Below, in pieces: positions 11,634 to 33,052 of a stretch of DNA of 33,052 nt. The DNA comes from a virus. The first letter of the stretch is position 1; every line of letters begins with the position of its first letter. The stretch is from positions 1 through 33,052 of the IMG/VR virus record IMGVR_UViG_3300045988_025843; one strand, 5' to 3'. Position numbers and translations under genes: made by a program. The notes below the pieces were generated by a model. The model made no database searches. It was given only the letters and a program-made list of their open reading frames with translations, and had not been told where the DNA came from.

Positions 11634-11649
11634 ATTAAAACAATGAGTT

Positions 11650-13668
11650 ATGAGACATTTATTCATCGACTTTGAAACGTATTCCGAAACGGACATTAAA
11701 AGCGCTGGTAATTATAAATACTGTGAGGACATGAATTTTGAAATTCTCCTTTGCGGATACATGTGGGACACAGATACGGAGGTTTCAATTATCGACTTAA
11801 CGAAGCCCGGAGGACTGGACGAGTTTAACGAGCTGTTCCTATATGTACAGAACAACGAGGACGTTGTGATAGTCGCGCACAACGCTACATTTGAGCGTAT
11901 CTGTTTGCGTGAATATGGGTTTGACATAAGCCCTATGCGCTTTTTCTGTACGGCTAACATGTCATTGTATTGTGGTATGCCGGCATCATTGGAAGCGGTA
12001 TCCAATATTCTGAACCTGGACGATAAGAAGAAAGGCACGGGCAAAAACCTTATCCGTTACTTTTCTATCCCTTGCAAACCCACCAAAACAAACGGAGGGC
12101 GCACACGTAATATGCCGGATCACGCCCCCGAGGACTGGAAAGAGTTCATAGATTACTTGCGATATGATGTGCTTTCTGAAAAGGAGATATTCGGTAAGTT
12201 GTCCCGGTTTGAATTCCCGGAAGAAGAGCAGCGAATTTATGCAGCTGACCAACGAATAAACGATTATGGCATATTGGCAGACCTTGATTTAGCACACGCC
12301 GCGCAAGATATGGACGAAGAATATAAGGCACGTCTTACTGAAAGAGCCGAAAAGGAATACGGGTTAAGCTCCTTAAAGTCCATGCCTCAGCTTAAGGGCT
12401 TCATTAAAGAGCGTACGGGCGTGGTTATCGATTCCCTCAATAAGAATAGCATCGAAGAGGTGGTAAAGACCGTAGCGAGCCTTAAAAACGTTACTGACGA
12501 GGATAAGCAAGCAGTGTTAGACGTTATCGACCTACGTAGGGAGATAGGCAAAACGTCGAACGCCAAGTACACCGCCATACTCGCAAGCGCCGGGAGGGGC
12601 AACCGTATCAGAGGTTTGTTCCGTTATTACGGGGCGAACCGTACCGGGCGATGGGCTGGGCGATTGGTTCAACTACAGAACCTACCGCAAAACCACATTG
12701 AAGACCTGGACGGGGCACGAGAACTGGCAAAGATGCACGATCTGGATATGATGGAAGTTATATACGACAAACCGACGCATATACTATCGCAGCTTATACG
12801 TACCGCGTTTATCGCCCCCGAAGGGTACACGTTCGCTGTAGCTGACTTCTCGGCGATTGAGGCACGTGTAATTGCCTGGGTTGCTAATGAGCAATGGCGT
12901 TTAGACTTATTTAACGACCCGAAGGCTGATATATATTGCGCTTCTGCGTCTAAAATGTTCGGTGTCCCGGTACACAAGGGCGACGACTTAAGGCAGCGCG
13001 GTAAGGTAGCGGAGCTTGCACTCGGATACGGCGGCGGCGTTAACGCCCTTACCACAATGGATATTAAAAAAGCGTTAGCAGATGAAGAAAAACCTCAAAT
13101 ATTGTCAAAATGGAGAGAAGCTAATAAAAAAATAGTATTTTTGTGGCGTTCGTTAGAAGACAGCGCAAAAAGATGTATCGGAACAAGGCGTGAACAAGTC
13201 TATAAAATAGACGATGTTTCAAGTATTATATTTCGATATGAGAGCGGCGCAATGACTATTGAACTACCAAGCGGTAGAAAGCTGTTCTACCCGTCTGCAA
13301 GAATGGGAAAACGTACTATCGAGGGCGTTAACGGCTCGTTTGAGGTTGAGGATATATCCTACATGGGTCAAGACCAAACCTCCGGGAAATGGGTTAAGCT
13401 AAACACATACGGAGGCAAGTTAACCGAGAACGTTGTGCAGGCGATAGCCCGTGACTTGCTGGCGAATGCGATTTTTAAGGTATTTGATTTAGGCTTTAAT
13501 ATCGTGTTGCATGTTCACGATGAAATAGCCGCCGAAATACCGAAGGATGGAAACGAAGAAAAGACGCTGCAAATAATGAGTGATGCCATGTGCAGCGCCC
13601 CGAGCTGGGCAAAGGGCATACCATTAAGAGCAGCAGGTTATATTACTGAATATTACAAAAAAGATTAA
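11650..13668 (+). CDS. Family A DNA polymerase with 3'-5' exonuclease domain
   Basis: The exonuclease motifs are FIDFETYS, HNATFE and YLRYDV. The polymerase motifs are A (FAVADFSAIEARV), B (RQRGKVAELALGYGGG) and C (VLHVHDEI). Confidence 0.9.
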   Translation: MRHLFIDFETYSETDIKSAGNYKYCEDMNFEILLCGYMWDTDTEVSIIDLTKPGGLDEFNELFLYVQNNEDVVIVAHNATFERICLREYGFDISPMRFFCTANMSLYCGMPASLEAVSNILNLDDKKKGTGKNLIRYFSIPCKPTKTNGGRTRNMPDHAPEDWKEFIDYLRYDVLSEKEIFGKLSRFEFPEEEQRIYAADQRINDYGILADLDLAHAAQDMDEEYKARLTERAEKEYGLSSLKSMPQLKGFIKERTGVVIDSLNKNSIEEVVKTVASLKNVTDEDKQAVLDVIDLRREIGKTSNAKYTAILASAGRGNRIRGLFRYYGANRTGRWAGRLVQLQNLPQNHIEDLDGARELAKMHDLDMMEVIYDKPTHILSQLIRTAFIAPEGYTFAVADFSAIEARVIAWVANEQWRLDLFNDPKADIYCASASKMFGVPVHKGDDLRQRGKVAELALGYGGGVNALTTMDIKKALADEEKPQILSKWREANKKIVFLWRSLEDSAKRCIGTRREQVYKIDDVSSIIFRYESGAMTIELPSGRKLFYPSARMGKRTIEGVNGSFEVEDISYMGQDQTSGKWVKLNTYGGKLTENVVQAIARDLLANAIFKVFDLGFNIVLHVHDEIAAEIPKDGNEEKTLQIMSDAMCSAPSWAKGIPLRAAGYITEYYKKD

Positions 13669-13672
13669 ATCT

Positions 13673-16111
13673 ATGGATTTACGAAAAATGACTTTTAAAA
13701 TTGCTACCGCGAGCAGCGCAAAGTCTACTTCATGGAAAAACCGCTCCTTCTCATGGGACGAGTTAACCGAGAAGCTGGCAAGGGCAAAGGTTACGGATGA
13801 GACGTACCGGGAGTTCATAAGCGCGAGCAAAGCCGAGCAGGGTAACATTAAAGACGTAGGCGCATTCATGGGCGGCGAGTTATTCGGTAGCCGTAGAAAC
13901 AAAAACAATGTCGGGGAACGCTCTATTTTGGCTCTCGATATTGACTACGGCGAAAAGAACTTTCCCGAGGCATTCTACTCGGTTATTAATTGCGCATGTA
14001 TCATTCACGGGACGCACAAGCATAACCCGAAGGCAAATACATTTCGATACCGTGTTATCATTCCGTTGTCTGAACCAGTGGACGGGGAACAATACGAAGC
14101 CATCGCCAGAAAGGTTGCGGAATTAACGGGTATTGACTTGTACGACAGAACGACGTTTCAACCCGAGCGCTGTATGTTTTTCCCATCGGTTTCCCGGGAT
14201 GTGGACTATGAGTTTATAGATTACTCGGCGTTCAACGAAAACCCTTTGGACGTGCAAAAGTATTTGGGCATGTACGACGATTGGAGCGATACAACCGAAT
14301 GGGCATACCATAAGGACGAGAAGGGCGAAGCCCGGACGCTTGCTAAAGAACAACAAGACCCCACATTAAAAGAGGGTAACGTAGGTGACTTTTGCAGAGC
14401 CTACACGATTAGCGAGGTTATCGCGGAATACCTATCGGACGTTTACGAACCTACCGAGCAGGAGGATAGATGGACTTATACGGGCGGTTCCACGTCGGGC
14501 GGCATGATTACCTTCAATGATATGTTTGCTTATTCGTTCCATAACAATGATCCGATACAAGGCAACCATGTGTTTAATGCCTACGACCTTGTACGTGTGC
14601 ACAAGTTCGGCAAACTGGATAAGGGCGCGGATAGAAAGAACTCCACCGAGGCTATGAACGAACTTGTAAACAAGGACCCAAAGGTGGCAGCGGCGCGTGC
14701 CCGTATGCTGGCGGTTAAGGCTGGCGAAATAATGGACGATTTCGACGACGTTATAGAAGTAGAGGAGGCAGCGGACACCGATGTGGCAATGACATACGAG
14801 GACGCTATGGCGAAACTCGAAACGGGTAAGCGCGGCGCTTACCTCCCGTCTGCAAAGAATTTAGGGTTGATAATGAAGTACGACCCGAACCTAAAGGGGC
14901 TTATTGCACGAGACCTATTTAAAGAACGCCGGGTTGTTACCCGTGTACCCATATGGCGCGCGAAGGATAGTTCTTTGGACTTCCAGGATGTGGACTACTC
15001 GGGCGTACGTAAACACATTGAAGACGTTTACGGTATATCCAACAGTGCGAAGATTGACGATGCCATAGCACTATCTGCGGAAATGAATTCTTTCCACCCA
15101 GTGCAGGAATACCTAACCAAATTAAAATGGGACGGTATCGAACGCGTGGATAAGGCGCTTATCCATATTATGGGAGCGGAAGATAACATATACACCCGTG
15201 AAGCATTCCGTATCATGATGGTTGGCGCGGTTAAGCGTATCTTCCAAAAGGGATGCAAGTTTGACAGCATGTTAGTGTTGCAGTCCGAGCAGGGCGCCGG
15301 AAAAAGCACATTTATCCGAAAGCTGGGTAAGCAATGGTTCTCCGATAGCCTTTCAAGCATGGACGGTAAGGGCGCGTTTGAACAATTGCAAGGTAATTGG
15401 ATATTGGAGGTCGCGGAGTTGTCAGCAATGAGACGTTCAGAGGTTGAGGGGGTGAAAAACTTCATTTCCAAAACAGAGGACAGCTACAGACCAGCGTACG
15501 GACGTGTTACGAAGAACTTTCCCCGGCAGTGTATTTTCATAGGTACAACGAATAGGGACGAATTCCTAAAGGACGATACGGGCGGCAGACGCTTTTTGCC
15601 CGTGAAGGTTAAGGCGAACGCCAATACGCATCTTATCTTTGAGAAGGGATTCGACGAATATGTAGACCAGCTATGGGCGGAGGCAGTCCAAATGTATTTC
15701 CGCAAAGTAAGTACGCTACTATCTCGCGAAGCCGAGGAAATCGCCGAGAGAGGACGCGAAGAGCATTTCGAGGCAGACCCCCGTACCGCATCAGTAGAGG
15801 CGTATTTGGACATGCTTGTGCCCTCGGACTGGAGACGAATGTATGTGAATGAAAGGCGCATGTACTTTAGGGGGTACGACGCATCAAAGATAGACCCGGA
15901 AGATTTTACACTGGAAAAGATGGACTTCGTATCTATTATGCAAATAGCTACAGATGTGTTCGAGATGGAAGTAGGGCGCGTAACGACCAAGGAAAGCCGC
16001 GAGATAGCGGCTATCATGTCTAAGGTACAAGGGTGGCAACGCGCAGCGAATGGAAAAACCGTCGCAGGCATCGGACGCGTACGAGGGTTTGAACGTATTG
16101 TTAACGAGTGA
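13673..16111 (+). CDS. Primase-polymerase / VirE-D5-like helicase fusion
   Basis: 812 aa. The N-terminal part has AEP-like ILALDIDYG and IIHGTHKH. The C-terminal part has the P-loop SEQGAGKST and Walker B ILEVAELS, as in VirE/D5-type phage primase-helicases. Confidence 0.8.
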   Translation: MDLRKMTFKIATASSAKSTSWKNRSFSWDELTEKLARAKVTDETYREFISASKAEQGNIKDVGAFMGGELFGSRRNKNNVGERSILALDIDYGEKNFPEAFYSVINCACIIHGTHKHNPKANTFRYRVIIPLSEPVDGEQYEAIARKVAELTGIDLYDRTTFQPERCMFFPSVSRDVDYEFIDYSAFNENPLDVQKYLGMYDDWSDTTEWAYHKDEKGEARTLAKEQQDPTLKEGNVGDFCRAYTISEVIAEYLSDVYEPTEQEDRWTYTGGSTSGGMITFNDMFAYSFHNNDPIQGNHVFNAYDLVRVHKFGKLDKGADRKNSTEAMNELVNKDPKVAAARARMLAVKAGEIMDDFDDVIEVEEAADTDVAMTYEDAMAKLETGKRGAYLPSAKNLGLIMKYDPNLKGLIARDLFKERRVVTRVPIWRAKDSSLDFQDVDYSGVRKHIEDVYGISNSAKIDDAIALSAEMNSFHPVQEYLTKLKWDGIERVDKALIHIMGAEDNIYTREAFRIMMVGAVKRIFQKGCKFDSMLVLQSEQGAGKSTFIRKLGKQWFSDSLSSMDGKGAFEQLQGNWILEVAELSAMRRSEVEGVKNFISKTEDSYRPAYGRVTKNFPRQCIFIGTTNRDEFLKDDTGGRRFLPVKVKANANTHLIFEKGFDEYVDQLWAEAVQMYFRKVSTLLSREAEEIAERGREEHFEADPRTASVEAYLDMLVPSDWRRMYVNERRMYFRGYDASKIDPEDFTLEKMDFVSIMQIATDVFEMEVGRVTTKESREIAAIMSKVQGWQRAANGKTVAGIGRVRGFERIVNE

Positions 16112-16202
16112 TAACAGAGAGGGGCGTAAAAGCCTCCAAATGTTAACTAACTGTTAACAGAATAACTAAATGAAATTTATCTCTTAAATGGTGTTAACGG
16201 AA

Positions 16203-16234
16203 TATACAACCTATCAGTATTTGCCGTATATTTG
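16203..16234 (+). promoter_or_regulatory. Promoter of ncRNA locus B (ACAAC element plus -7 box TATATTTG)
   Basis: TATACAAC starts at 16203 and TATATTTG lies at 16227-16234, a 24-nt offset. It is collinear with 6628-6659. Confidence 0.7.
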
Positions 16235-16240
16235 TAATGC

Positions 16241-16450
16241 CAAAAGGAAACAAGGTTATTCTTTACCGAAACTAAGAATACGAGACCCGCCCCAAAAGGA
16301 AAGATTAAAAAGTGAATGGAATTTAATCACCGGGTTTTCTTAAGACAAACAGAAAAAACTAAGAGGTTGCTTTTTACCAAAACTAAGAGCACGATACCCG
16401 AAAGGGAAAGTTTGAGAAGTGAAAGGGATTCAAACACCAAATAGTTTTTT
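16241..16450 (+). ncRNA. Tandem two-hairpin structured RNA, locus B (2 units)
   Basis: Unit 1: stem TATTCTT (16257-16263) pairs with AAGAATA (16274-16280); hairpin 2 pairs GATTAAA (16303-16309) with TTTAATC (16322-16328). Unit 2 (16361-16440) is nearly identical to locus A unit 2; its hairpin 2 pairs 16410-16416 with 16429-16435, followed by a T6 run (16445-16450). There is no ORF. Confidence 0.65.
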
Positions 16451-16529
16451 AAATAAAAAGGCAATAACGGTGAACCATTTCAAAGCTTCCGTTGTTCTTA
16501 TAGTATAACAATTTAAAAAACAAAAGATT

Positions 16530-16940
16530 ATGAAAAAGTTAGTAGTATTAGCAGTGTTAATTCTTACAAGTGTATCAATGTTTAGCCAAATTACGTCTCA
16601 GGGTAAACCCGATGTACTGAAATCATTCCGTATGGGCGTTTGCAAATTGGTTAATACTAATGGGTCAATAACCATTGAGGCGGTAACGCGCGAGACCGAA
16701 AGGTATATTATGAAAGTCCATTTAGGTACACCCGAGGAAGCGGCGGTAACGCTTGCAAGCCTTGCAGAATACAAACCCCGAAAGGGCGAGACGGTGAACC
16801 TAAACAACCCGAGCAACAACGAGGCGTATTTCCAAAAGCTTAATGGTACCTGGGTTATCACGGAGAAGTTAACGGAGGTTTTCAGCATAGCCGTAAGCCG
16901 CGGAGAGCTTAAAAAGATGGTTGAGGCGCTGAACAATTAA
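16530..16940 (+). CDS. Secreted protein (signal peptide), function unknown
   Basis: The N-terminus MKKLVVLAVLILTSVSMFSQ is a classic Sec signal without a lipobox Cys. 136 aa. Confidence 0.7.
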   Translation: MKKLVVLAVLILTSVSMFSQITSQGKPDVLKSFRMGVCKLVNTNGSITIEAVTRETERYIMKVHLGTPEEAAVTLASLAEYKPRKGETVNLNNPSNNEAYFQKLNGTWVITEKLTEVFSIAVSRGELKKMVEALNN

Positions 16941-16988
16941 AGAAGTGTTTTTGTTATTACAGCATATGCAATTTTAAAAAGAAAAATT

Positions 16989-17192
16989 ATGAAAAGTGGA
17001 AATTTTATCAGACTGGAATTCGTAGTTAAAGGTGAATTACAAGTGGAGTTTATCAACGTTGAACATGTATCGCGCATTATGCACGTGGAAGGCAAACCGT
17101 TTATTGGTATGCTGGGACAGACCTACACGCGCCAACTTACAGAAACGAGCATGAAGGACCTAATGGAGTACATTAACGTAGAAAGCAATTAA
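16989..17192 (+). CDS. Hypothetical protein
   Basis: 67-aa ORF preceded by an AATTTTAAAAAG-type leader. Confidence 0.55.
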   Translation: MKSGNFIRLEFVVKGELQVEFINVEHVSRIMHVEGKPFIGMLGQTYTRQLTETSMKDLMEYINVESN

Positions 17193-17193
17193 A

Positions 17194-17355
17194 ATGGTTA
17201 CTATCTTAAAAGTTATCGCAGTAAACGCAGGGGAACGTACCTCTTATTACCCGACCCCCGGAGATGGGGTGTTTACAACCGTGGAGGCGGCACGGGAGTT
17301 TTATAAAAATGAGTTCAAAACAAATAAAATAATATTGTGTTATGCCAGCAAGTGA
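17194..17355 (+). CDS. Small hypothetical protein (53 aa, below the ORF-track cutoff)
   Basis: The ATG at 17194 lies 1 nt after the upstream stop. It reads MVTILKVIAVNAGERTSYYPTPGDGVFTTVEAAREFYKNEFKTNKIILCYASK and fills an otherwise unexplained 150-nt gap. It overlaps the next start by 14 nt. Confidence 0.4.
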   Translation: MVTILKVIAVNAGERTSYYPTPGDGVFTTVEAAREFYKNEFKTNKIILCYASK

Positions 17356-18064
17356 AAACGTACGGAGTTACAATGTGGGAAAGTCCGATTATGCAAAGCA
17401 TGCTATCCAGCCGTGGGATATTTGGAAAGAATATAATCTTAACCCCTGGGACGCGGACATAGTAAAGCGCGTATTGCGTACCAAAGAGGGCGAGGATAGA
17501 AAACTGGACTATGAAAAGATTATCCATGTATGCCAGGAACGCATCAGACAGTTAGAAACCGAGAGGGCTGATGCCATAGAGGAGAACGACGAACCCGATT
17601 ATAAAACAGTTATGTGCCCGTCGGAAAAGGACAAGCCCAAACTATTATACCAGGACGGCATTACGTTTAAAAACGTCTATGAAGTGTACGGAGTGTTTCA
17701 GTCGCTTGGTAGACCGTACGCGTACCTCGGTTATAACCGCAACCACGTTTATTTAGACCTTGGTATGTCGGACGCGTGGAGCTATTTTACTTACGACTGG
17801 CTGCCTAAACGTGCCTTTGGTCTATCCGGAATCATGCTAGATGGAGGAGGCCACGCGGTATCTATGGAGATAGGCAACTACGGTTTATCGTACGACATAC
17901 ACAACTATATAATAGCCTACGGTAATTTATACCGTTATGTGGATGCCACCCCCGAGGGGCACGTGTATATGAGGTTTGAGGATGGCGGTTTGTTCACAAA
18001 GGTAGTAACAGAGCATAAGATTTTTAATGAAGCAGTACAGCATGTCAAAGGAAATAATAAGTGA
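17342..18064 (+). CDS. DUF3310-like N-terminal domain protein
   Basis: SDYAKHAIQPWDIWKEYNLNPWDADIVKRVLRTK resembles the DUF3310 signature seen in many phage early proteins. The C-terminal 150 aa were not recognised. The call is from memory. Confidence 0.55.
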   Translation: MPASENVRSYNVGKSDYAKHAIQPWDIWKEYNLNPWDADIVKRVLRTKEGEDRKLDYEKIIHVCQERIRQLETERADAIEENDEPDYKTVMCPSEKDKPKLLYQDGITFKNVYEVYGVFQSLGRPYAYLGYNRNHVYLDLGMSDAWSYFTYDWLPKRAFGLSGIMLDGGGHAVSMEIGNYGLSYDIHNYIIAYGNLYRYVDATPEGHVYMRFEDGGLFTKVVTEHKIFNEAVQHVKGNNK

Positions 18065-18383
18065 AAAAGATTTAGAGCGTACATTCGCCGAGAAGCTTAA
18101 CCAAACAAAAAAGGTGTGGGTAATAAAACTATTATCCACCTTTATAAAAGGTTTGCCGGATAGAATGATACTTTGCCAGGGAGGGCATGTAGGCTTTGCC
18201 GAGATAAAGACCACGGGTAAGAAACCAACCAAGATACAATTACTAATACATAGCAAGTTAGAGGCTTTAGGCTTCAAAGTATTTGTTATCGACGATTTGG
18301 AAAGCCGGGACGCCGCGATAAGTTTCTTCTTAAGTAAGGTTAAGGAAATAACCAACATACCGGGAAAAGGGTTATCTTTGTAG
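18027..18383 (+). CDS. VRR-NUC domain nuclease (alternative start 18042)
   Basis: GLPDRMILCQGGHVGFAEIKTTGKKPTKIQ matches the VRR-NUC PD...E-x-K...Q core. Its small size and position next to SNF2 and the methyltransferase are typical of this replication module. Confidence 0.75.
   Translation: MKQYSMSKEIISEKDLERTFAEKLNQTKKVWVIKLLSTFIKGLPDRMILCQGGHVGFAEIKTTGKKPTKIQLLIHSKLEALGFKVFVIDDLESRDAAISFFLSKVKEITNIPGKGLSL
18349..18380 (+). promoter_or_regulatory. Early-class promoter cassette (TAACCAAC-N16-TATCTTTG) inside the 3' end of the VRR-NUC gene
   Basis: AACCAAC lies at 18350-18356 and TATCTTTG at 18373-18380. The leader AGCAGCAAATTAAAAAAC precedes the ATG at 18410. Confidence 0.65.
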
Positions 18384-18409
18384 CAGCAAATTAAAAAACA
18401 TAATTAAGT

Positions 18410-19129
18410 ATGATTTATTTAGGAGGAAAGACAAGAATAGCAAAAGAAATTTTGCCCTTAATCTTGGCAGATAGAAAAGAAGGGCAATATTTTGTAGAGC
18501 CGTTTTGTGGTGGGTGTAACGTGACTGCCAACGTACCAGGAAACAGGATAGCAAACGACAGCAACGAGTATTTGATAGCCATGTTTGAAGGCTTGGTGTC
18601 CGGGAAGAAATACCCCGAGCAAATAGATTCCGAACTGTACAACGACGTTAAGAGCTGTTTCCGGGCTGGGTCTGACAAATACGACCCCGATTTCATGGGC
18701 TGGGTGGGGTTTGTGGCCTCTTACAGGGGGACATTTTTTAGGGGCTACTCGGGGTCAATCGTGACTGCCAAAGGCGAGCGCCGTGATTTCATTTCCACGG
18801 CTGTGCGGAGCATAGCAAAGCAGATACCCAAATTGCAGGGGGTAGAGTTTCGCTCCGGGGACTATAAGAACCTACGGATACCAGGGGAGTCTATAATATA
18901 CTGCGACCCTCCGTATATGAATACAGCAGCATATAGGCGCAGCCTAAGCCACGATGAGTTTTGGCAATGGTGCCGGGAGCGTGTTTACGATGGTCATAAG
19001 GTCTATATCTCCGAATACCAAGCCCCGGAAGACTTTGTAAAGATTTGGGAGAAGCCATTACAAAATAACATGAGTTCCGATAAAAGAAAAGCTACCGAGA
19101 AATTATTTATTTATAAAGGACAATTTTAA
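18410..19129 (+). CDS. N6-adenine DNA methyltransferase, D12 (Dam) class
   Basis: It carries YLGGK at the N-terminus, motif I FVEPFCGGCNV, then NDSNEYLI, and motif IV IIYCDPPY. The motif order is that of alpha-group Dam-like enzymes. Confidence 0.88.
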   Translation: MIYLGGKTRIAKEILPLILADRKEGQYFVEPFCGGCNVTANVPGNRIANDSNEYLIAMFEGLVSGKKYPEQIDSELYNDVKSCFRAGSDKYDPDFMGWVGFVASYRGTFFRGYSGSIVTAKGERRDFISTAVRSIAKQIPKLQGVEFRSGDYKNLRIPGESIIYCDPPYMNTAAYRRSLSHDEFWQWCRERVYDGHKVYISEYQAPEDFVKIWEKPLQNNMSSDKRKATEKLFIYKGQF

Positions 19130-19139
19130 AACAGAAATC

Positions 19140-19382
19140 ATGAAAAAGAGAAGTTTAAGAGAAGAAATCGAATACCGTTTAGGTATGTACTTTGGTATAA
19201 AGTCGGGCATGCTGTATGTGCGTGATGATAAGTTCGGTAGCACCGAGGAAATTCTGGACCAGTTGCAACGCGATATTACCCGTGACGTTAATTTCCTCTC
19301 GCGTAAAACACTGGGGTACGTATCGGATGAGCAGGATTTCAAAAGCATTTGCGTATTCTATAAAACAAAATTAATGAAGTAA
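19140..19382 (+). CDS. Hypothetical protein
   Basis: 80-aa ORF, 10 nt after the methyltransferase stop. Confidence 0.6.
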   Translation: MKKRSLREEIEYRLGMYFGIKSGMLYVRDDKFGSTEEILDQLQRDITRDVNFLSRKTLGYVSDEQDFKSICVFYKTKLMK

Positions 19383-19389
19383 TAAAGCT

Positions 19390-19566
19390 ATGGTGAACTA
19401 TATAGATTTAAAGTTAAAGTGTATCGCAGGACACACCGAAATAGTAATCAACGGTCAGCGCATCAAGTGCGATGCCGATTACGACAGAGTAATAGGACAC
19501 GTAACGCCGGCAGCTCTCCATGAGTTCAATGCCCAGTTAGCAATGATAAAAGCAATGTTATGTTAG
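19390..19566 (+). CDS. Small hypothetical protein (58 aa, below the ORF-track cutoff)
   Basis: The ATG at 19390 opens MVNYIDLKLKCIAGHTEIVINGQRIKCDADYDRVIGHVTPAALHEFNAQLAMIKAMLC. It fills the gap before the SNF2 gene and overlaps its start by 7 nt. Confidence 0.45.
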   Translation: MVNYIDLKLKCIAGHTEIVINGQRIKCDADYDRVIGHVTPAALHEFNAQLAMIKAMLC

Positions 19567-20948
19567 AAAGAAAGCAATTACATGAATACCAAGTAAAGGG
19601 AGTGCAGCACATCATAGACAACGAGTTTTGCGCGTTGTTCCTTGATATGGGCCTCGGGAAAACAGTAACTACCCTAACCGCCATCAAAGACCTTTTGGAC
19701 AATTGCATAATATCTAATTGCCTGGTAATCGCCCCGAAGAAGGTAACACAGGTTACATGGAGCGACGAGATTAAAGCCTGGGAGCACCTTAAGGACTTGA
19801 CGATATCAGTCATAGACGGCACGGTTAAACAGCGCCGGGAAGCCTATGGGAAGCAGGCGGACATATACGCAATTAGCCGTGATAACATTGCATGGTTGGT
19901 AATGGAGTACGGGGGTATAAAGCTACCCTATGATATGGTTGTTATCGATGAGCTTAGCAGTTTTAAGAATTACGCGTCAAAGCGTTTTAAAGCCCTTAGA
20001 AAGGTGCGGAAGTTTATCCCCCGAGTAGTAGGCTTGACGGGTACACCGTCGCCAAACGGGCTTATAGACCTATTCGCGCAAATGTATTTGATAGACCAAG
20101 GGGAGAGGCTCGGTAAATCAATCACAGCATACAGGGATAGGTTTTTCAGACCCGATAAGAGGAACGGCGATATAGTGTACAGTTATGCACTGAAAAGTCC
20201 GCAGGAGGAAACAGAGAAGCTAATAAGCGACCTAATAAGTGATATTACCATTTCAATGACCGCCGAGGACTATTTGAAGATGCCCGACCACATTAACATA
20301 TACGACCGCGTGGAGTTGCCCCCTAAAGTGCTGGCACAATATAAGGAGTTTGAGAAGGAGCAAGTATTGGAACTTATCAACTCGGACGAGCCTATAAGTG
20401 CGGCAAGTGCAGCAGCCCTGTCGAACAAGCTACAGCAATTCGCTAACGGCGCGATATATGATGCCGACGGAAAGGTAATAGAACTGCACGACGAGAAGTT
20501 GGAAAAACTCGAGGAGCTTGTAGAGGCGGCTAACGGCTCGCCCGTATTGGTTGCCTACTCTTACAAGCACGACCTTGAACGTATAATGCGGAAGCTGAAG
20601 GCATACAAGCCCGTCAAACTGGAAAAGCCCGAGCAGATAGCAGACTGGAACGCCGGGAAGATTAAAGTGATGGTAACCCACCCGGCGAGCGCAGGACACG
20701 GGCTTAACCTACAAAAAGGTGGGCATACGCTTATATGGTTCGGTAATACATGGAGCTTGGAACTGTACATGCAGTTCAACGCCCGGTTGTATCGTCAAGG
20801 GCAAGCGTACCCCGTAACCATACACCACGTCTTAACCACTGGAACGGTAGACGAGAAGATAATAAAAGCCCTGGAAGGCAAGAAACAGACGCAGGACGGG
20901 CTTATGCAGAGTATCAAGGAACTTATGGAATTCTACAGTAAGAAATGA
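19560..20948 (+). CDS. SNF2-family helicase
   Basis: The motifs are I (LDMGLGKT), II (VVIDELSSF), III (GLTGTPSPNG), and C-terminal HPASAGHGLNLQ and YRQGQ. Confidence 0.88.
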   Translation: MLERKQLHEYQVKGVQHIIDNEFCALFLDMGLGKTVTTLTAIKDLLDNCIISNCLVIAPKKVTQVTWSDEIKAWEHLKDLTISVIDGTVKQRREAYGKQADIYAISRDNIAWLVMEYGGIKLPYDMVVIDELSSFKNYASKRFKALRKVRKFIPRVVGLTGTPSPNGLIDLFAQMYLIDQGERLGKSITAYRDRFFRPDKRNGDIVYSYALKSPQEETEKLISDLISDITISMTAEDYLKMPDHINIYDRVELPPKVLAQYKEFEKEQVLELINSDEPISAASAAALSNKLQQFANGAIYDADGKVIELHDEKLEKLEELVEAANGSPVLVAYSYKHDLERIMRKLKAYKPVKLEKPEQIADWNAGKIKVMVTHPASAGHGLNLQKGGHTLIWFGNTWSLELYMQFNARLYRQGQAYPVTIHHVLTTGTVDEKIIKALEGKKQTQDGLMQSIKELMEFYSKK

Positions 20949-21046
20949 AAAAGCTAATAACAATTATCGCAGTCCTACTATTATTGGTAGGCTGCGCCGT
21001 AGTACAGAACGCAGCATACAACGTAATTCCAAGCTACAGCAATTAG
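20945..21046 (+). CDS. Small lipoprotein (33 aa, below the ORF-track cutoff)
   Basis: Its ATG overlaps the SNF2 stop (ATGA). The sequence is MKKLITIIAVLLLLVGCAVVQNAAYNVIPSYSN, with a positively charged n-region, a hydrophobic core and the lipobox L-V-G-C. Confidence 0.55.
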   Translation: MKKLITIIAVLLLLVGCAVVQNAAYNVIPSYSN

Positions 21047-21098
21047 GGTACGGGCTATCACTGAAAGATAGCTTAATACTTAAATTATGTTAACGAAA

Positions 21099-21130
21099 GA
21101 ACCAACATAACGGGAAAAGTGTTATATTTG
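21099..21130 (+). promoter_or_regulatory. Early-class promoter cassette (GAACCAAC-N16-TATATTTG)
   Basis: GAACCAAC lies at 21099-21106 and TATATTTG at 21123-21130. The leader TATCAACGATTTAAAAAC precedes the ATG at 21156. Confidence 0.7.
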
Positions 21131-21155
21131 TATCAACGATTTAAAAACAAAGATT

Positions 21156-21428
21156 ATGGAAAAGTATTCAAAATCAGTTAGAGAGATGTACTCGCAGTTT
21201 AAAAAGAGAGAAGCCCACCCGCTGGAAAAGTACATAGGGCGGTTAGTTAACTACCATGGCGAAAAAATGGAGGTAGTAGGCTATGGATACAATGAATGTG
21301 CAGGCGAGGACTTGCTGATAGTAGATGCCTCGCAAAGCGGAGGCTGGTCTGCACTGGGACCTTCCGACGTGGTATTCAAAGAGTGCGAGTATTATTGGTA
21401 TGTTAGTGTTAGTGACTTAACATATTAG
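21156..21428 (+). CDS. Hypothetical protein
   Basis: 90-aa ORF behind a promoter cassette. Confidence 0.65.
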   Translation: MEKYSKSVREMYSQFKKREAHPLEKYIGRLVNYHGEKMEVVGYGYNECAGEDLLIVDASQSGGWSALGPSDVVFKECEYYWYVSVSDLTY

Positions 21429-21467
21429 CAATATGATTAGAAACAGAAATTTAAAAACAATAAGGAA

Positions 21468-21902
21468 ATGACAAATAAAGAATTCGCGTTTAACTACGCA
21501 GGCAAAGAGTTCATGTACTACGGAAATAGGGTTATCTTAGTGGGTTTCAATAGTAAACGCCCCGGGACGGTAATCGTGTCCCCCTTAGAGGAAAAAGCCA
21601 TAAAACCTTTTTGTTGGGAAGGGGAATACCTTGATAGGTGGGATGTGATAATGTATAAGACCGATATAGGGGTTTACCAATATGTAAACCTAAATGAGAT
21701 CGTCCCCATAACCAATGAGAAGCCCCAAACCGTGGTTAAGCCAATGGCACCGGGCGGGGGTATTGCTTATTACGAGGGGCAGCAGGGCATGAACTATTCT
21801 GTGATTAACGGTTCTGTGTCCGCGGTGTATAAAAGGCAAGGGAGCGCCTTAAAACTTGTCTCCCGGGGTGAGGGTATTAACGATGTAACAGAAAAGGTAT
21901 GA
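21468..21902 (+). CDS. Hypothetical protein
   Basis: 144-aa ORF with an AAATTTAAAAAC-type leader. Confidence 0.65.
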   Translation: MTNKEFAFNYAGKEFMYYGNRVILVGFNSKRPGTVIVSPLEEKAIKPFCWEGEYLDRWDVIMYKTDIGVYQYVNLNEIVPITNEKPQTVVKPMAPGGGIAYYEGQQGMNYSVINGSVSAVYKRQGSALKLVSRGEGINDVTEKV

Positions 21903-22018
21903 TGGAAAAAACAACGATGGTTTTAATGTTCGTAATGCTAGTAGGCATTTACTTTTTAGGGTGTGCGGCGGTAGTGATATACATAGCAAAAAATATAGTA
22001 AGATGGCTGAAACATTAA
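21902..22018 (+). CDS. Small single-pass membrane peptide (38 aa; alternative ATG at 21899)
   Basis: Its ATG overlaps the upstream TGA. The sequence is MEKTTMVLMFVMLVGIYFLGCAAVVIYIAKNIVRWLKH, with one clear TM helix and a basic C-terminus. Confidence 0.45.
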   Translation: MEKTTMVLMFVMLVGIYFLGCAAVVIYIAKNIVRWLKH

Positions 22019-22140
22019 TTAGAATAGCCGCGGGATTCGCGGTAGTGTTTTTCACAGTGGGTATTGTAGCCGTGCTTTGGCAGGTGGCAAAGTATATGGC
22101 ATCCCGGGGAATGGCGGAGGACGAAAAATATGAGAGTTAA
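22003..22140 (+). CDS. Small single-pass membrane peptide (45 aa)
   Basis: MAETLIRIAAGFAVVFFTVGIVAVLWQVAKYMASRGMAEDEKYES has one TM helix and an acidic tail. It overlaps both neighbouring genes by about 10-16 nt, an arrangement suggesting translational coupling. Confidence 0.45.
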   Translation: MAETLIRIAAGFAVVFFTVGIVAVLWQVAKYMASRGMAEDEKYES

Positions 22141-22522
22141 ATTCATGGACCTGGCGGTATGCCTCAACTGCCATGTATTCATTATATGGGAGTTCATACG
22201 AAGGTACGGTTATACAGCCGGGGTAACAAAGGACAAGTACGGGCAGGGTTATGTGGAAGCCGCGCTTTGTAACGGGTGGGTTAATAAGCTGGCAAAGTAT
22301 GTAGACGCCCAGGACTTCACATATAAACAGCCTATCAATAAAAGGCGGTATCTTATCAGGGACGAGACACGTCTCGCAGAGGAGAAAAGAAACGAGCAGG
22401 ACATACCAAGAACCTACGGAATTGACCCGGACGGAAGGATAAAAAGGATGTCGAAGTTCAAGGATGGCACGGTGCAAACGTGGTATTGGCATCGGTCTTC
22501 GCTCGGGTGGAAATTGACATAA
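22130..22522 (+). CDS. Hypothetical protein
   Basis: 130-aa ORF, the last gene before the terminator and element X copy 2. Confidence 0.6.
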   Translation: MRVKFMDLAVCLNCHVFIIWEFIRRYGYTAGVTKDKYGQGYVEAALCNGWVNKLAKYVDAQDFTYKQPINKRRYLIRDETRLAEEKRNEQDIPRTYGIDPDGRIKRMSKFKDGTVQTWYWHRSSLGWKLT

Positions 22523-22603: not shown

Positions 22604-22646
22604 AGCCCAAATCTGATTACAAAATGTCAGATTTGGGCTTTTGTTT
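22604..22646 (+). terminator. Strong rho-independent terminator ending the early/middle region
   Basis: A perfect 13-bp stem pairs AGCCCAAATCTGA (22604-22616) with TCAGATTTGGGCT (22627-22639). The loop is 10 nt and TTTGTTT follows. Confidence 0.88.
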
Positions 22647-22687: not shown

Positions 22688-22892
22688 CACAGCTGCACAG
22701 TAAAAAATCGCTACTGTGCAGGTCTCTGTGCAGTCTAACTCCTTATATTATAATATATTACATGTATATACACAGATACACAGTAAAAAGGGGGGTAAAA
22801 CATTATTTTGGAATATAGTATATATTTGAGGGGTATAAAATATACTATATTTCATATTAAAGTTTAGAAAAAAAAGTGCGTGTCTGTGCAGG
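22688..22892. repeat. Element X copy 2: CTGTGCAG/CTGCACAG octamer cluster, AT-rich core and hairpin
   Basis: CACAG lies at 22688-22692 and CTGCACAG at 22693-22700. CTGTGCAG lies at 22714-22721 and 22726-22733. CACAG recurs at 22771-22775 and 22779-22783. A perfect 11-bp hairpin pairs ATATAGTATAT (22813-22823) with ATATACTATAT (22840-22850). CTGTGCAG closes the element at 22884-22891. Confidence 0.9.
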
Positions 22893-23024
22893 TGCTTGTA
22901 ACGTTCAGTGTGATAGGTAGTTACCGTGCACACGTACGAAATAGTGTAAAGATAAATTATTTGTAAACTTTATTTGTAGAAAATGCCTAACTGCCCATCG
23001 GTTGGTCTGGTGCGATTTGTTGCC

Positions 23025-23032
23025 TACCTTTG
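23025..23032 (+). promoter_or_regulatory. -7 box TACCTTTG: candidate late promoter upstream of terS
   Basis: The context GATTTGTTGCCTACCTTTGTG resembles the ncRNA promoters (TTTGCCGTATnTTTGT). It ends 167 nt before the terS ATG. Confidence 0.5.
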
Positions 23033-23199: not shown

Positions 23200-23826
23200 A
23201 TGGCAGGAAGAGCAAAGAAGGAAGCCGCCCCGGATACAAAGGCGGCGATTACCAAGGGGCAAGCGACGGGCAAAGCCCCCACCCCTAAAACAGATTTGGA
23301 GAAGTGCAAAGAACTCTATGAGGTCGTGCAGACGCGCGGTTGTAAAGGCGCTACGTTGTCGACCGTCGAGGAGTGCGTGGATTACGTAGCCGAGTACATG
23401 AACTTCTGCGCGCGAAACCCGTTCATCACGTATGAAGTCCTAAAGGGTGGGAACGCAGCCGGGCAAAAGGTACCTATAGAGAAGAAACGCGCACCATCGC
23501 TTGGTGGCTTCTGCCTTTTTATCGGGTGGACTTTGCAAGCGTTCAAGAAGAACGGCGCACGGCTTGAAAAGCTGGCAGAGGATGGGAGCGAAGACGCGGC
23601 TAACCTATTGACCGGGTACGCCCTTATCGCCGAACTCATTGCAACCGATATGGACGAGAGCGCGCTCGCTGGTACGGTAGACGCTAACTACATGGCGAAG
23701 CTACGAGGGTTGCGAGACCTTAAGGACGTTACAAGCAACGGCAAGGAAGCAGGCACAAAGGCAATGCAGGTTAACGTACTATCCGAGGACGCAGTGAAGA
23801 ACCTACAGAAGTTAGGAGGCATCTAA
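23200..23826 (+). CDS. Terminase small subunit (putative)
   Basis: 208 aa, immediately upstream of terL. The segment KRAPSLGGFCLFIGWTLQAFKKN resembles the HTH-like P-x-x-x-G-L-x-x-x-L-G core of small terminase families. The N-terminus is basic. Confidence 0.6.
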   Translation: MAGRAKKEAAPDTKAAITKGQATGKAPTPKTDLEKCKELYEVVQTRGCKGATLSTVEECVDYVAEYMNFCARNPFITYEVLKGGNAAGQKVPIEKKRAPSLGGFCLFIGWTLQAFKKNGARLEKLAEDGSEDAANLLTGYALIAELIATDMDESALAGTVDANYMAKLRGLRDLKDVTSNGKEAGTKAMQVNVLSEDAVKNLQKLGGI

Positions 23827-27867: not shown

Positions 27868-29475
27868 ATGGAAGTACAAATAAGAATAAACGGTGTGTTG
27901 TTGGACGGTGTAGCGCCCGGTGCGGTAAAACTCACCATCAACAACCCCGACCCAATTAAATTCTCCGAACGGACGGTTAGTTATTCGGGGTCTATTACCG
28001 TGCCCCGTTCACAAGTTAATGACCGGGTGCTAAGGTCCGAGCGCTTCCCTGGCTACTTCACGCGTACAGCGCCATATGTTGCCGAACTTTCGTTTTCTGG
28101 GCTTGACGTTCCGTTTGGTGGCGGCTTGTTCCGCGCCCGTGTATCAGCAGACCCGGACAGCTATACGATTGAACTCATTGAAACCGTATCGAAGCTTTCG
28201 ACCCTCCGCGCCCCGGTAGTTAATATACCTACCTTTGAAACGCCAGCGTACCAGTTTTCAACGTACGTGGATAGCCTTAACTACGCGTACCCGACCCCGG
28301 TAATTATGCCTAATCTATATGCGTCGAACGGCACAACCACCATAGAACTGGCGTACGTGGCAGACCGGGAAATGAAAACAGCAGGTGATTACAAGGACGC
28401 GGAAAGCCAGTTGGTCTTTAAGGGTGCACATGACGGGCTTAGGGGTTCGGTGTACGCTGCCAATTACATGATAGCGGAGAATAACGACGTAGCAACATGT
28501 TTCATGTATATGATGGGTTCTACGTTTAACCTTGAATTCACTTCCGATTCGTTCATTATCCTACCGCCTACCGCCCCCGCAACCGTTTACCTACGAAGTA
28601 ACGGCGGTACGTTCGCTTTGCCTTTTGCGCGCGGGACGGTACGCCCGGATGGTAATTACCCGTACTACCCGGTAAGCCCCGGTTCGAAGTCATGTATAAT
28701 AACACCGAGACCAGCACGAGACTTGAATTTCGGGTTTACAACCTCTTCGAGTTCTATGGTTTATTCGGGTACGCCTATTACTTCCGTACCTACTACCGAA
28801 TCGTATTATATATCGTTCCGTATCAAGGCGGTTGGGTCCCCAACGTATGCGTGGCACTTAGTGCCAACGATGGGGCTGAATACCCCGTTCGATATTGTGC
28901 AGGCGTTTTGCAAGGCGTTTTGCTGGACTTACGAATTCCAGTCCTCACCGTTTTTGCTAATGCTAAAGCCATTCATAAACCCGTCCACGTCTTCGACGTA
29001 TCGGCAAAACTGGAGCGGCAAAATAGACACGAGTACGGTTAAGGTGTCAGAGGCAGCAGGGGCAGCACGAACATACACGGTGAAGGTAGGCGAATTAACG
29101 CAAACCGTGGGTGGCTATGGCGGTGCAATATCCACACAGGAGACAGCAGGAGAAAGTAACTTCCCCGTAAACCCGGGCGCGACTCGCCCCTACGCCACTA
29201 TGATAAGGTATAGCGGTGCGAGCTTGGTACCAGATAACTATTTCAACCGTGCGAGCGGTTACCGTGCTACGATAGCAGGGCATTATGACCGTTTTTCCCC
29301 TGGGTGGCAGGTGACGGCTAAAATGAACCTATCATATTTTGATATACAGAAAATGAAGCCCGACGCGCTTTATTTCGTAGGTGAGCTTAACCACTGGTTC
29401 TACCTTAGGACATTAAGCAATTGGGACGCGTCAACGGGCACGGCTAACGTTACATTAATAGCCGTTAACAATTAA
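27868..29475 (+). CDS. Tail-associated protein (distal-tail or host-recognition candidate)
   Basis: 535 aa. The N-terminus (MEVQIRINGVLLDGV...) resembles the beta-rich N-termini of siphovirus tail proteins. The call rests mainly on position and size. Confidence 0.6.
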   Translation: MEVQIRINGVLLDGVAPGAVKLTINNPDPIKFSERTVSYSGSITVPRSQVNDRVLRSERFPGYFTRTAPYVAELSFSGLDVPFGGGLFRARVSADPDSYTIELIETVSKLSTLRAPVVNIPTFETPAYQFSTYVDSLNYAYPTPVIMPNLYASNGTTTIELAYVADREMKTAGDYKDAESQLVFKGAHDGLRGSVYAANYMIAENNDVATCFMYMMGSTFNLEFTSDSFIILPPTAPATVYLRSNGGTFALPFARGTVRPDGNYPYYPVSPGSKSCIITPRPARDLNFGFTTSSSSMVYSGTPITSVPTTESYYISFRIKAVGSPTYAWHLVPTMGLNTPFDIVQAFCKAFCWTYEFQSSPFLLMLKPFINPSTSSTYRQNWSGKIDTSTVKVSEAAGAARTYTVKVGELTQTVGGYGGAISTQETAGESNFPVNPGATRPYATMIRYSGASLVPDNYFNRASGYRATIAGHYDRFSPGWQVTAKMNLSYFDIQKMKPDALYFVGELNHWFYLRTLSNWDASTGTANVTLIAVNN

Positions 29476-29486
29476 TAATTTGGATT

Positions 29487-31991
29487 ATGGCAACAGAAAA
29501 AGTTACTCTACTCGACCTCTCATTTGATACGTCTTCCGCCCTTGATGGGCTGGACGCCCTCATAGCAAAGTCCGTCGAACTGGCAGACAAAAAGAGCCAG
29601 CTAATGGCAGCGCTTAAGGACGAGAAGAAGCAGTTGGACGAGGCAGGAAAGGCGTACAAGACCGGGACGCTCAGCCAAGACGAGTATAAAAAGGCGGTAG
29701 GTGATGCGGCGAAAGCGCAAATCGAACTGAAAAAGCAGTTGTTGGACGTCAACGCCTCTATCTCCGATAACAACCGCGAGATAAAGACGAACACGACGCT
29801 CCTAAACAGCCAGGAGGATAGCGTAGACGCGCTTCGGGCACAGTTGGCGAAGAACACCAAGGAGCTGAACGCAATGAGTGCAGCGACGCGCAACAACACG
29901 GACGAGGGGCAGAAGCTTGTCACCGAGACAAAGGAGATAAGCGACCGCCTTAAGGACATGGAAAAGGCTGTAGGCGATAACCGTAGGAACGTAGGTAACT
30001 ATGCGGAAAGCATCCAGGAAGCCATGAGCAGCACTCAAGGGCTTTCCGGGGCAACGGCGGCTATGGCTACGTCTCTATCGGGCGGTGTGAACGTCCTAAA
30101 GGTGTTTAACGCTACGTTGAAAGCTAACCCGATACTCGCTATTGTGTCGGTTATACTGGTTCTCATATCCACGGTTGAAAAGCTGATGAAACGTAACAGT
30201 GAGATGGCGGCAAACCTAAAGGCGGCATTCGCTCCGTTTGAGGTTATCTTCTCTCGAATACTCGACGGCGTAACCAAGCTTCTCGGGGGTGTGGCAAAGG
30301 CTTTCGAGTGGGTAACGGAGAAGGTTGTCAACTTGCTTTCGTCTATCGGTCTTATTACCGAGGAGACAACTAAGGCAGCGAACGCAGCCAAAGCGATCAC
30401 CAAGCAGGAGCTGGCGATATATGAGGCGGAAACGAATAACCTCGTAACGTTGTCGGCGATGCGTAGGGAACTGGAAGCGCAACGAACCATTGTAGGAGAC
30501 CAGCTAAAGACCGTGGAGGAACGAAACGCAGCAGCCCAAAAGGCTATCGCGATTTCCAAGCAGATGGAGAAAGCCGAGATAGACGTACTACAGCAGAAGT
30601 ACAACCAAATCAAGGCGCAAAACGAGTTGGGTTACACCAGCAAGGAAGACCGACGCGCAGAAATGCAAGCACTGGCAGACCTACAGGCGCGCCAAGCCGA
30701 TTACATAGGGCAACGAAAGGAGCTGGAGAACCAAGCGAGCGGTATCATAAAGACGCAGATAGCAGCTAATGAGGCAGCCTACAAGGCAGCTGAGGCAGCA
30801 AAGGCACAAGCCGCAGTAGAGGCAGCGCAAAAAGCGGAAAACCAAAAACGCGCATTACAGGCTGAGACAATAAAGCAGATGGAAACAGCGTTAACGGCTC
30901 TTAACCTCTCGATGCGAGCTAAAGAATTGGAAAACAACACCACCGGAACGAAGATAGAAAACGAAAAGTCATACGTAGCGGAAAGTTTAAAGCTTGAAAA
31001 GTACAGATTAGAGCAGGGTCTCATCACGCAGCAAGAATACGCCAACAAGGAAGCCGAATTTAACCTCGGCATACAGCAATTGGAGAAGCAACGTAAAGAA
31101 GAGCAGGACGCACTGATGAAGGAACGCGAAGCGATGGACGCGGCGAACCTGCACAAACTTAAGATGGCAGAAATAACAAACGAGTACGACCTACGGCAAG
31201 CACAGCTTGATGCACAATACGCGCAGGAAATCGCGGCAGCGGAAAAGATAGGCGCCGACACCGCGTTGATACAAGCCAGATACGAGAAGGCTAAAGAGGA
31301 TAACACGAAGGCACGCGTTAACGCTGAATTGACTATGACCGCGGGACTGGCAGGTCAAATGTCTACTTTGCTGGGTGAGGAGAGTGCTATCGGCAAAGCG
31401 TTTGGCGTGGTTCAAGCAACCATCAATACGTATATTGGAGCAACTAAAGCGTTGGCACAAGGTGGTATACTCGGTATCGCACAAGCCGCGATAGTTATCG
31501 CTTTCGGTATGAAACAAGTTGCGAGCATCGCCAAACAGAAAGAACCCGAAACAAAGGTAAGCAGCGTTAAGAAGTACGCAAAGGGCGGTCAGATATACGG
31601 GCGTTCCCATGCACAAGGTGGTGTAACATTCCGGGGCGATAACGGGCAGGTGTTCGAGGCAGAAGGAGGCGAAAACGTCTATATCATGAAGAAATCAGCC
31701 AGTGCAGAGATTAACGCACTGTCTGCACTCAACGAGGCTCACGGGGGTAACTCTTTCGGTACATCCGGGCTTTACAAGTTTGCTGATGGCGGTATGGCTG
31801 CGAGCATTTCCGAAGCAAACCGAATGGTTAGGCAGTCCGATAACGTGCGCCTATCAAGCGAAAGCATTAACCAACTGGCGGGGGTTGTTATCGACGCGGT
31901 TATGAACATGCCCAACCCGGTTGTGTCGGTGCAGGACATCAACGCAGGACAAAACGACGTGGCGGTAGTCAAGGGCTTCGCAACTTTCTAA
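29487..31991 (+). CDS. Tape-measure-like protein (or internal/ejection protein)
   Basis: 834 aa with long coiled-coil tracts. Two hydrophobic Gly/Ala-rich segments are present (ANPILAIVSVILVLISTV and GGILGIAQAAIVIAFGM), plus a C-terminal GG-rich block (YAKGGQIYGRSHAQGGVTF). Confidence 0.6.
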   Translation: MATEKVTLLDLSFDTSSALDGLDALIAKSVELADKKSQLMAALKDEKKQLDEAGKAYKTGTLSQDEYKKAVGDAAKAQIELKKQLLDVNASISDNNREIKTNTTLLNSQEDSVDALRAQLAKNTKELNAMSAATRNNTDEGQKLVTETKEISDRLKDMEKAVGDNRRNVGNYAESIQEAMSSTQGLSGATAAMATSLSGGVNVLKVFNATLKANPILAIVSVILVLISTVEKLMKRNSEMAANLKAAFAPFEVIFSRILDGVTKLLGGVAKAFEWVTEKVVNLLSSIGLITEETTKAANAAKAITKQELAIYEAETNNLVTLSAMRRELEAQRTIVGDQLKTVEERNAAAQKAIAISKQMEKAEIDVLQQKYNQIKAQNELGYTSKEDRRAEMQALADLQARQADYIGQRKELENQASGIIKTQIAANEAAYKAAEAAKAQAAVEAAQKAENQKRALQAETIKQMETALTALNLSMRAKELENNTTGTKIENEKSYVAESLKLEKYRLEQGLITQQEYANKEAEFNLGIQQLEKQRKEEQDALMKEREAMDAANLHKLKMAEITNEYDLRQAQLDAQYAQEIAAAEKIGADTALIQARYEKAKEDNTKARVNAELTMTAGLAGQMSTLLGEESAIGKAFGVVQATINTYIGATKALAQGGILGIAQAAIVIAFGMKQVASIAKQKEPETKVSSVKKYAKGGQIYGRSHAQGGVTFRGDNGQVFEAEGGENVYIMKKSASAEINALSALNEAHGGNSFGTSGLYKFADGGMAASISEANRMVRQSDNVRLSSESINQLAGVVIDAVMNMPNPVVSVQDINAGQNDVAVVKGFATF

Positions 31992-33038: not shown

Positions 33039-33052
33039 CAAACAAAAAAAAT
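32954..33052. repeat. Terminal overlap partner of 1-99
   Basis: Exact 99-nt identity with the start of the window. Confidence 0.95.

Follow-up and report, generated by a model that had tools for sequence, protein, structure and literature searches.

In the satellite phage P4, octamer iterons of both orientations are present at two distinct cis sites, ori and crr. They are recognised by the DNA-binding domain located at the C-terminus of the α protein, a fused primase-helicase. In the SaPIs, the Rep proteins are self-loading helicases that double as initiators, and iterons of 5-6 nt are read by their C-terminal winged helix (PMC9371898). The SaPI ori contains six to twelve short iterons disposed around an AT-rich centre, with at least two iterons per side, the two sides being in opposite directions (PMC9371898). 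Another arrangement is found in SPP1, where two similar origins, each made of repeats and an AT-rich unwinding element, are located kilobases apart and are both bound by gp38 (PMC6316719). One of them, oriR, has been proposed to stall forks and thereby to set off the change to concatemer synthesis (PMC6316719; PMC3485210). For the siphophages of gut Bacteroidaceae, which are abundant, a full-text literature search retrieved no description of a replication origin.

Here, we consider an element, called element X, which is present in two copies in a viral genome of 33,052 nucleotides (hereafter the window, i.e. the whole stretch of DNA that was analysed). Considering its organization, its conservation and the properties of one phage protein, it is proposed that copy 2 and copy 1 of element X are an iteron-type replication origin, which would be read by the phage's own primase-helicase. 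This reading, drawn from sequence comparisons, is given a probability of about 0.68.

Genomic setting and organization of the two copies

The window is of the Bacteroides uniformis siphophage type, with nucleotide identities of 85-88% to the named isolates C2_18_80S2P, EMB1/2, BU241P1/2, BU183P1/2, BU1-1 to BU3-1, BU730P1 and BX788P2. Its two ends are identical over 99 nt (1-99 and 32954-33052, exact match), which indicates that the genome is complete, was assembled as a circle and measures about 32.95 kb. The overlap itself looks like the k-mer overlap left by an assembler on a circular or permuted genome, and not like a physical terminal repeat. The record of BU2-2 (PQ571282.1) displays an exact end overlap of 141 nt, located inside copy 1 of the element. 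It likewise looks like the k-mer overlap of a circular or permuted genome, the assembly of BU2-2 having broken at the two-copy repeat. All plausible genes of the window are carried by the + strand. The cumulative GC skew increases steadily and shows an inflection neither at copy 1 nor at copy 2; because all genes are on one strand, it is uninformative on the origin. No tRNA or tmRNA was found by a search of the whole window.

The two copies of element X are located in the two largest non-coding gaps of the genome and are approximately opposite each other on the circular map. Both are located outside the transcription units, with a terminator before and the next -7 box after (Table 1). The terminator described in the earlier note ahead of copy 2 is recovered as a hairpin followed by a T-run at 22604-22639, and a terminator-like hairpin also precedes copy 1 (6268-6301). 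On the other side, both -7 boxes are of the Bacteroidota type and lie 115-135 nt past the last octamer of their copy, in agreement with the spacing noted previously.

The two copies are 79.9% identical over 214 nt (22688-22891 versus 6319-6537, E = 9e-44), which bears out the flanking blocks first quoted as common to both. The central segment is longer by 9 nt in copy 1, the length difference already reported. The octamer CTGTGCAG or its complement is found eight times in the window, four times per copy and nowhere else; in shuffled windows its mean count was 0.45, and none of 100 shuffles reached eight. Its CACAG core is similarly concentrated. The two elements, of 200-220 nt each, harbour 15 of the 51 CACAG pentamers of the genome (eight in copy 1 and seven in copy 2), at a density of about 36 per kb versus about 1.1 per kb elsewhere (~33-fold).

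A common plan is observed in each copy: four CACAG-core repeat groups alternating in orientation, a tract of 8-17% GC, an A/G-run block and a right arm. Pairs b/c and d/e point away from each other across the 8-17% GC tract. The inverted repeat formed by a0/a with b/c has a folding energy of -11.9 kcal/mol (z = -4.4). With repeat pairs facing in opposite directions around a very AT-rich tract, hexamers might be loaded at this place and open the duplex.

Table 1. Features of element X, its surroundings and the primase-helicase gene, in window coordinates
Feature	Position	Strand	Remarks
Late genes (terS, terL, tape measure, portal, lysis-region protein)	23200 through window end to 6264	+	
Early/replication genes (DUF2800 nuclease, Enc34-type SSB, family A polymerase, 812-aa VapE-type primase-helicase, Dam methylase, SNF2 helicase)	6973-22522	+	Pfam and PHROG scans
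terS	23200-23826	+	
Intrinsic terminator, end of the early/middle transcription unit and upstream boundary of copy 2	22604-22646	+	14-bp stem with 6 G-C pairs, then a T-run
Copy 2, iteron pair a0/a (CACAG, CTGCACAG)	22688-22700 (cores 22688, 22696)	+	Changes class with all other sites in relatives
Copy 2, iteron pair b/c (CTGTGCAG twice, 12 nt apart)	22714-22733 (sites 22714, 22726)	-	10+5 bp inverted repeat with a0/a
Copy 2, conserved TCTAACTCC block and AT-rich tract	22734-22768	none	Candidate DNA-unwinding element; tract 22743-22768 with 2 G/C in 26 nt (8% GC)
Copy 2, iteron pair d/e (TACACAG twice, 8 nt apart)	22769-22783 (cores 22771, 22779)	+	Opposite to b/c across the AT tract
Copy 2, A/G-run block TAAAAAGGGGGGTAAAACATTATTTTGGA	22784-22812	none	17-nt core TAAAACATTATTYTGGA
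Copy 2, central inverted repeat	22809-22854	none	The "rewritten hairpin" of the earlier note; 11-14 bp stem, 9-nt loop
Copy 2, conserved block ATTAAAGTTTAGAAA	22856-22870	none	
Copy 2, outer iteron f (CTGTGCAG)	22884-22891	-	End of the right arm; changes class with the other sites
Late promoter preceding terS, -7 box TACCTTTG	23025-23032	+	Neighbour of the element; membership in it is not implied
Copy 1	6319-6537	+	Order and orientation of parts as in copy 2; two overlapping outer sites
Copy 1, a0/a	6319-6332		
Copy 1, b/c	6346-6365		
Copy 1, AT tract	6366-6400		
Copy 1, d/e	6401-6416		
Copy 1, block	6417-6445		
Copy 1, f/f'	6525-6537		
-7 box TATCTTTG (Bacteroidota-type), promoter after copy 1	6652-6659		
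Primase-helicase, 812 aa, VapE-like and PriRep5-like	13673-16111	+	Proposed iteron reader (homology; co-variation with iteron class)
Primase-helicase, Q478 codon	15104-15106	+	
Primase-helicase, C-terminal patch QRAANGK (residues 789-795)	16037-16057	+	

Several other repeated signals were observed in the window. Promoter-like cassettes of the early/middle region occur at 7165-7227, 9300-9362, 16172-16234, 18318-18380 and 21068-21130, and also at 6629-6660. In these cassettes, GTTAAC...AACCAAC precedes a TAnnTTTG -7 box by about 17 nt and replaces the -33 TTTG that is usual in Bacteroidota. No AACCAAC box is present in the late promoter at 23025. The early/middle cassette is also present in the Phocaeicola phage BM127P1. 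Two non-coding cassettes of about 250 nt (6629-6883 and 16204-16463) are 87-94% identical and each contain two AAAGGAAAGTTTGAAAAGTGAATGGGATTCAAACACC; one directly follows copy 1 and the other directly follows the primase-helicase gene, and similar units exist in BM127P1 (22019-22266). Finally, a near-perfect 43-nt tandem duplication, AAAACATTGTCGTACCTTTGCCGTTATAATGGTATTAACA(G/A)TT, is located just upstream of the DNA polymerase gene (11551-11636), each unit carrying a TACCTTTG -7-like box.

Repeat classes and their co-variation with the primase-helicase

The element was matched at two places in all 13 isolate relatives, and the nine complete genomes examined have both copies at the same junctions and in the same orientation. 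About 40 extra relatives were obtained by a pattern scan of viral contigs, with TAAAACATTATTYTGGA as the pattern. Among the 47 related contigs and isolate genomes, both copies are observed in 31 and one copy in the other 16, most of the latter being covered only in part. A two-copy element of common architecture at both early/late junctions, as the earlier note had recognized, is kept in every relative examined. Conservation of TAAAACATTATTYTGGA in the metagenomic relatives is by construction, since this core served as the fetching pattern; in 18 isolate copies that were fetched independently, it is invariant.

From one phage to another, the repeat sites of both copies switch class jointly, being TGCACAG, TGACCAG, GACACAG or TTACACAG. 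Most phages belong to the TGCACAG class, and the TGACCAG class (class B) is made of BU183P1 and three metagenomic contigs. The half-sites of a and b change together and stay complementary across classes. When a short motif is used seven to eight times, in both orientations, and is replaced everywhere at once, this is what is expected if the protein that reads it has changed its specificity. One case is not explained by a pure protein-specificity model. In copy 2 of BU1-1 (PQ571280.1, ~19062-19275, minus strand), only sites b and d are altered, to CTGAGTC and ACTCAG, whereas a, c, e and f stay in the TGCACAG class. The altered sites are mutually complementary and form inverted repeats flanking the AT tract. 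This change, private to one phage, may result from template switching or gene conversion between the arms.

Which protein would read these sites? Pfam and PHROG scans of the early genes identified a VapE primase-helicase, PolA, SNF2, DUF2800 and an Enc34-type SSB, but neither a DnaB helicase nor a loader. Residues 392-730 of the 812-aa primase-helicase match PriRep5 of SaPI5 (PDB 7PDS) with E = 2.9e-80. For the C-terminal 132 residues, an exhaustive search of representative proteins found 276 relatives of the domain. A profile built from 40 of these matches the C-terminal domain of PriRep5 (chain residues 326-465, E = 7.7e-12). The single-sequence AlphaFold2 model of the C-terminal domain alone has a pLDDT of 42, too low for a putative winged-helix fold to be read from it.

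An association scan was performed, in which every protein family was aligned across all contigs and the columns separating one repeat class from all others were retained. Clean diagnostic columns were considered when three contigs of the class or more supported them. In the TGACCAG class, only Q478R and G794R qualify, both in the primase-helicase. Q478R is present in all four contigs of this class. As for G794R, it was predicted and then found in the fourth contig, which is recombinant in the primase-helicase gene and has GRK where other classes have NGK, KAK and similar; the substitution is therefore present in four of four contigs, including one with a different backbone. For the TTACACAG class, the sole clean diagnostic columns are Q789K and N793D/E, located in the same seven-residue patch as G794R. 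The primase-helicase is also the only protein with at least three class-B comparisons in which each class-B contig is nearer to BU183P1 than any other contig; one further protein passed this identity test, on a single comparison. A hypervariable protein of 90 aa (21156-21428) has some diagnostic residues, in two contigs only. With the nine genomes alone, neither whole-protein identity nor private substitutions designated a protein uniquely divergent in BU183P1. The association, which is carried by few independent lineages (four contigs in one class, three in another) and can be mimicked by shared ancestry, appeared only once the ~40 metagenomic relatives were added.

Residue 478 comes just after a conserved FHP motif, where the VapE domain begins. 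It is Q in the CACAG-class phages, R in the TGACCAG class, R in BM127P1, K in BV57P3 and K in PriRep5 of SaPI5. As it is far in sequence from the C-terminal patch, it may touch DNA at a second point or mediate a contact between domains.

Two more distant phages display the same organization with other repeats. All that the Phocaeicola phages BM127P1 and BV57P3 have in common with the window is the replication genes, which are about 76% identical in nucleotide sequence. They have twin elements at the same two junctions, with TGTTCC/GGAACA repeats and a plan that comprises opposed pairs, an AT tract, an inner pair, an inverted repeat and an outer pair. The C-terminal patches of their helicases are alike (RS[RK]RR..KAYGNA[RN]GYVRKG) and unlike that of the window. 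In the Bacteroides salyersiae phage BS162P3 (OP172707.1), the two junctions (11219-11752 and 28917-29712) have only short stretches in common, one of them inverted, and a different candidate repeat, GCCCAGTAC/GTACTGGGC, is found there.

The protein that co-varies with the octamers being the replicative primase-helicase, these data point to replication initiation. The earlier note had favoured a temporal switch or a boundary element. In such a model, a phage or host protein bound to the octamers would switch the early and late promoters or would insulate the modules. The location of both copies, after a terminator and ahead of the promoter that opens the next module, at the distance from the -7 box given above, would be suitable for this, and the palindromic a/b sites resemble operators. 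However, domain scans revealed no small early protein with a recognisable DNA-binding domain. Class-diagnostic residues backed by three or more contigs of a class were seen in none of the small early proteins, whereas the replicative helicase has them; among the proteins examined, it is the primase-helicase and not a candidate regulator that co-varies with the octamers. Moreover, the two downstream promoters differ upstream of their -7 boxes, since the early one possesses an ACAACC-type box of the early/middle family that the late one lacks, and an operator array would need neither a very AT-rich core nor opposed repeat pairs. Control of transcription as the role of the element is considered unlikely. 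As initiators often also regulate transcription, some control could coexist with an origin function, and a regulatory side-effect of initiator binding is possible.

It may also be imagined that the element is a pac site for the terminase. Repeated TerS boxes are found in the pac regions of some phages, as in the pacL/pacR region of SPP1, and copy 2 is 310 nt upstream of terS. Copy 1, however, is half a genome away from terS, beside lysis and early genes. In addition, TerS is 95-99% identical across all repeat classes, and the scan of all contigs gave no class-diagnostic column for this protein. Finally, the repeats of BV57P3 and BM127P1 are wholly different from those of the window, in step with the C-terminus of the helicase. 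A packaging signal is thus very improbable.

Central inverted repeat and RNA structure

According to the earlier note, a central hairpin is conserved in position between the two copies, its structure being retained while its sequence is free. The inverted repeat of copy 2, folded as single-stranded DNA, reaches -7.5 kcal/mol (z = -3.7), and none of 200 shuffles is as good. In contrast, the 7-bp stem TATAGAA/TTCTATA of copy 1 is at chance level (-2.7 kcal/mol, z = -0.14), since 71 of 200 shuffles fold as well. Conservation in position therefore relies on one real stem and on one stem at chance level.

Orthologous sequences were then compared. In 35 distinct orthologues, the stem of copy 2 is conserved in sequence and 88% of the cells pair. 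Some changes convert G-U to G-C, and a two-sided change is observed in one cell only. The covariation score in these orthologues, 0.086, is not above the value of 0.090 obtained after shuffling (391 of 500 shuffles at least as high), and RNAalifold on the copy 2 orthologues gives -2.4 kcal/mol without recovering the stem. In 31 orthologues of copy 1, pairing is lost at three of the seven positions of the stem in 14-18 sequences, i.e. in about half of the relatives, with no compensatory change, and the flanks are kept. With a stem conserved in sequence without covariation in copy 2 and a broken stem in copy 1, the idea of a structure kept while its sequence varies freely does not hold in this phage group. 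The compensatory changes that it would imply were seen neither in copy 1 nor, above the level of shuffles, in copy 2, and loss of the hairpin with retention of the flanks, which had been named as an observation that would go against it, occurs in copy 1. At greater distance, an inverted repeat is again present in the right arm. Those of BM127P1 have folding energies of -24 and -12.6 kcal/mol (z = -8.5 and -4.0), and in BV57P3 the stem around TAAAAGGGGGTA differs between the phage's own two copies by two compensatory pairs. In view of this recurrence and of these compensatory pairs, a weak form of the structural idea survives, and a weak structural requirement in the right arm is possible.

These observations bear on a model in which the hairpins would be selected as RNA, for instance as an antitermination or processing signal. 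That the a/b inverted repeats and the central stem of copy 2 fold better than shuffles would fit with such a structured RNA, as would the G-U to G-C changes and the compensatory pairs of BV57P3. However, a scan of the whole window matched no Rfam family. The element follows a terminator and precedes a promoter, which is not the transcript position of a nut/put-type leader RNA. Neither the covariation in copy 2, nor the pairs of copy 1, nor the RNAalifold result described above supports a conserved RNA fold, and the reuse of one short motif seven to eight times in both orientations is not required by such a fold. Selection as RNA is hardly probable.

A small minus-strand gene can be dismissed. 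Each copy is overlapped by an ORF of 61-64 aa (6380-6574 and 22748-22933); the two share one frame and are uninterrupted in the window, their translations align, and the 9-nt difference is a multiple of three. However, both GTG starts fall beyond the conserved element, it is nucleotide sequence that is conserved, in blocks, and among the relatives the frame is broken in 31 of 40 distinct sequences of copy 2 and 16 of 32 sequences of copy 1.

Proposed mechanism and comparison with described origins

In the proposed origin, the fused primase-helicase would be a self-loading initiator of the SaPI Rep/PriRep5 kind. Its C-terminal domain would read the CACAG-core repeats via the patch 789-795, with a contribution of residue 478. 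The enzyme would assemble on both sides of the AT tract, melt this tract and load itself, after which its primase domain would start synthesis. The right arm, with its A/G-run block, inverted repeat and outer repeats, would be accessory, maybe as a priming or assembly site.

As for the presence of two copies, one may fire, and the other may act as an additional origin or, in the manner suggested for oriR of SPP1, as a fork barrier. Both copies share the polarity of all the genes. Two origins firing rightward would consequently replicate every gene co-directionally with transcription. A division of labour may be tentatively envisaged, although we regard it as rather doubtful. One copy would fire theta replication, and the other one, just before the late promoter and terS, would be occupied by the same initiator and serve either as a programmed fork barrier or as a second unidirectional origin. 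Arriving replication would then trigger the formation of concatemers and couple late transcription and packaging to replication.

If the origin reading is correct, the origin and the initiator of these phages would be in hand, together with a natural specificity map of a self-loading primase-helicase, in which four iteron classes are tied to patch 789-795 and residue 478. This would also be a second phage, unrelated to SPP1, with twin origins, the arrangement being kept from B. uniformis phages to Phocaeicola phages. The sites and their cognate C-terminal patch could be of use in engineering Bacteroides phages or phage-derived replicons, and would have a bearing on incompatibility or cross-replication between co-infecting relatives.

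Compared with the described systems, the left half of element X has exactly the layout of a SaPI ori. Each copy has seven to eight short iteron cores, within the range of the SaPI origins, and the AT-rich centre is flanked by b/c and d/e in opposite orientations. The fused primase and VapE/SF3-type helicase is homologous to PriRep5, its binding to the iterons being predicted. On another hand, the genome has two copies, each about 7 kb from the helicase gene, whereas a SaPI has one origin directly downstream of rep. No CACAG occurs between 11769 and 18801, around the primase-helicase gene, and the SaPI-type vicinity of origin and rep is not found here. The hosts of the two systems also differ, a lytic Bacteroidota siphophage versus a Gram-positive island, and the conserved right arm, with its A/G-run block, inverted repeat and outer iterons, is an addition to the SaPI plan.

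Iterons at two sites and a fused primase-helicase make P4 resemble the plan proposed here. However, crr and ori of P4 differ in architecture, whereas the two copies of element X are alike.

In the case of SPP1, a separate origin binder (gp38), a loader (gp39) and a DnaB-type helicase (gp40) are used, in contrast to the fused protein of the window. Moreover, oriL is inside gene 38 and the SPP1 repeats are unrelated in sequence to those of element X. The resemblance resides in the presence of two similarly organised sites, with repeats and an AT-rich tract, in one genome; as here, one of the SPP1 origins is located in a long intergenic region with transcription signals on both sides. By analogy, and as a speculation, the position of copy 2 directly before the late promoter and terS would suit a role similar to that of oriR.
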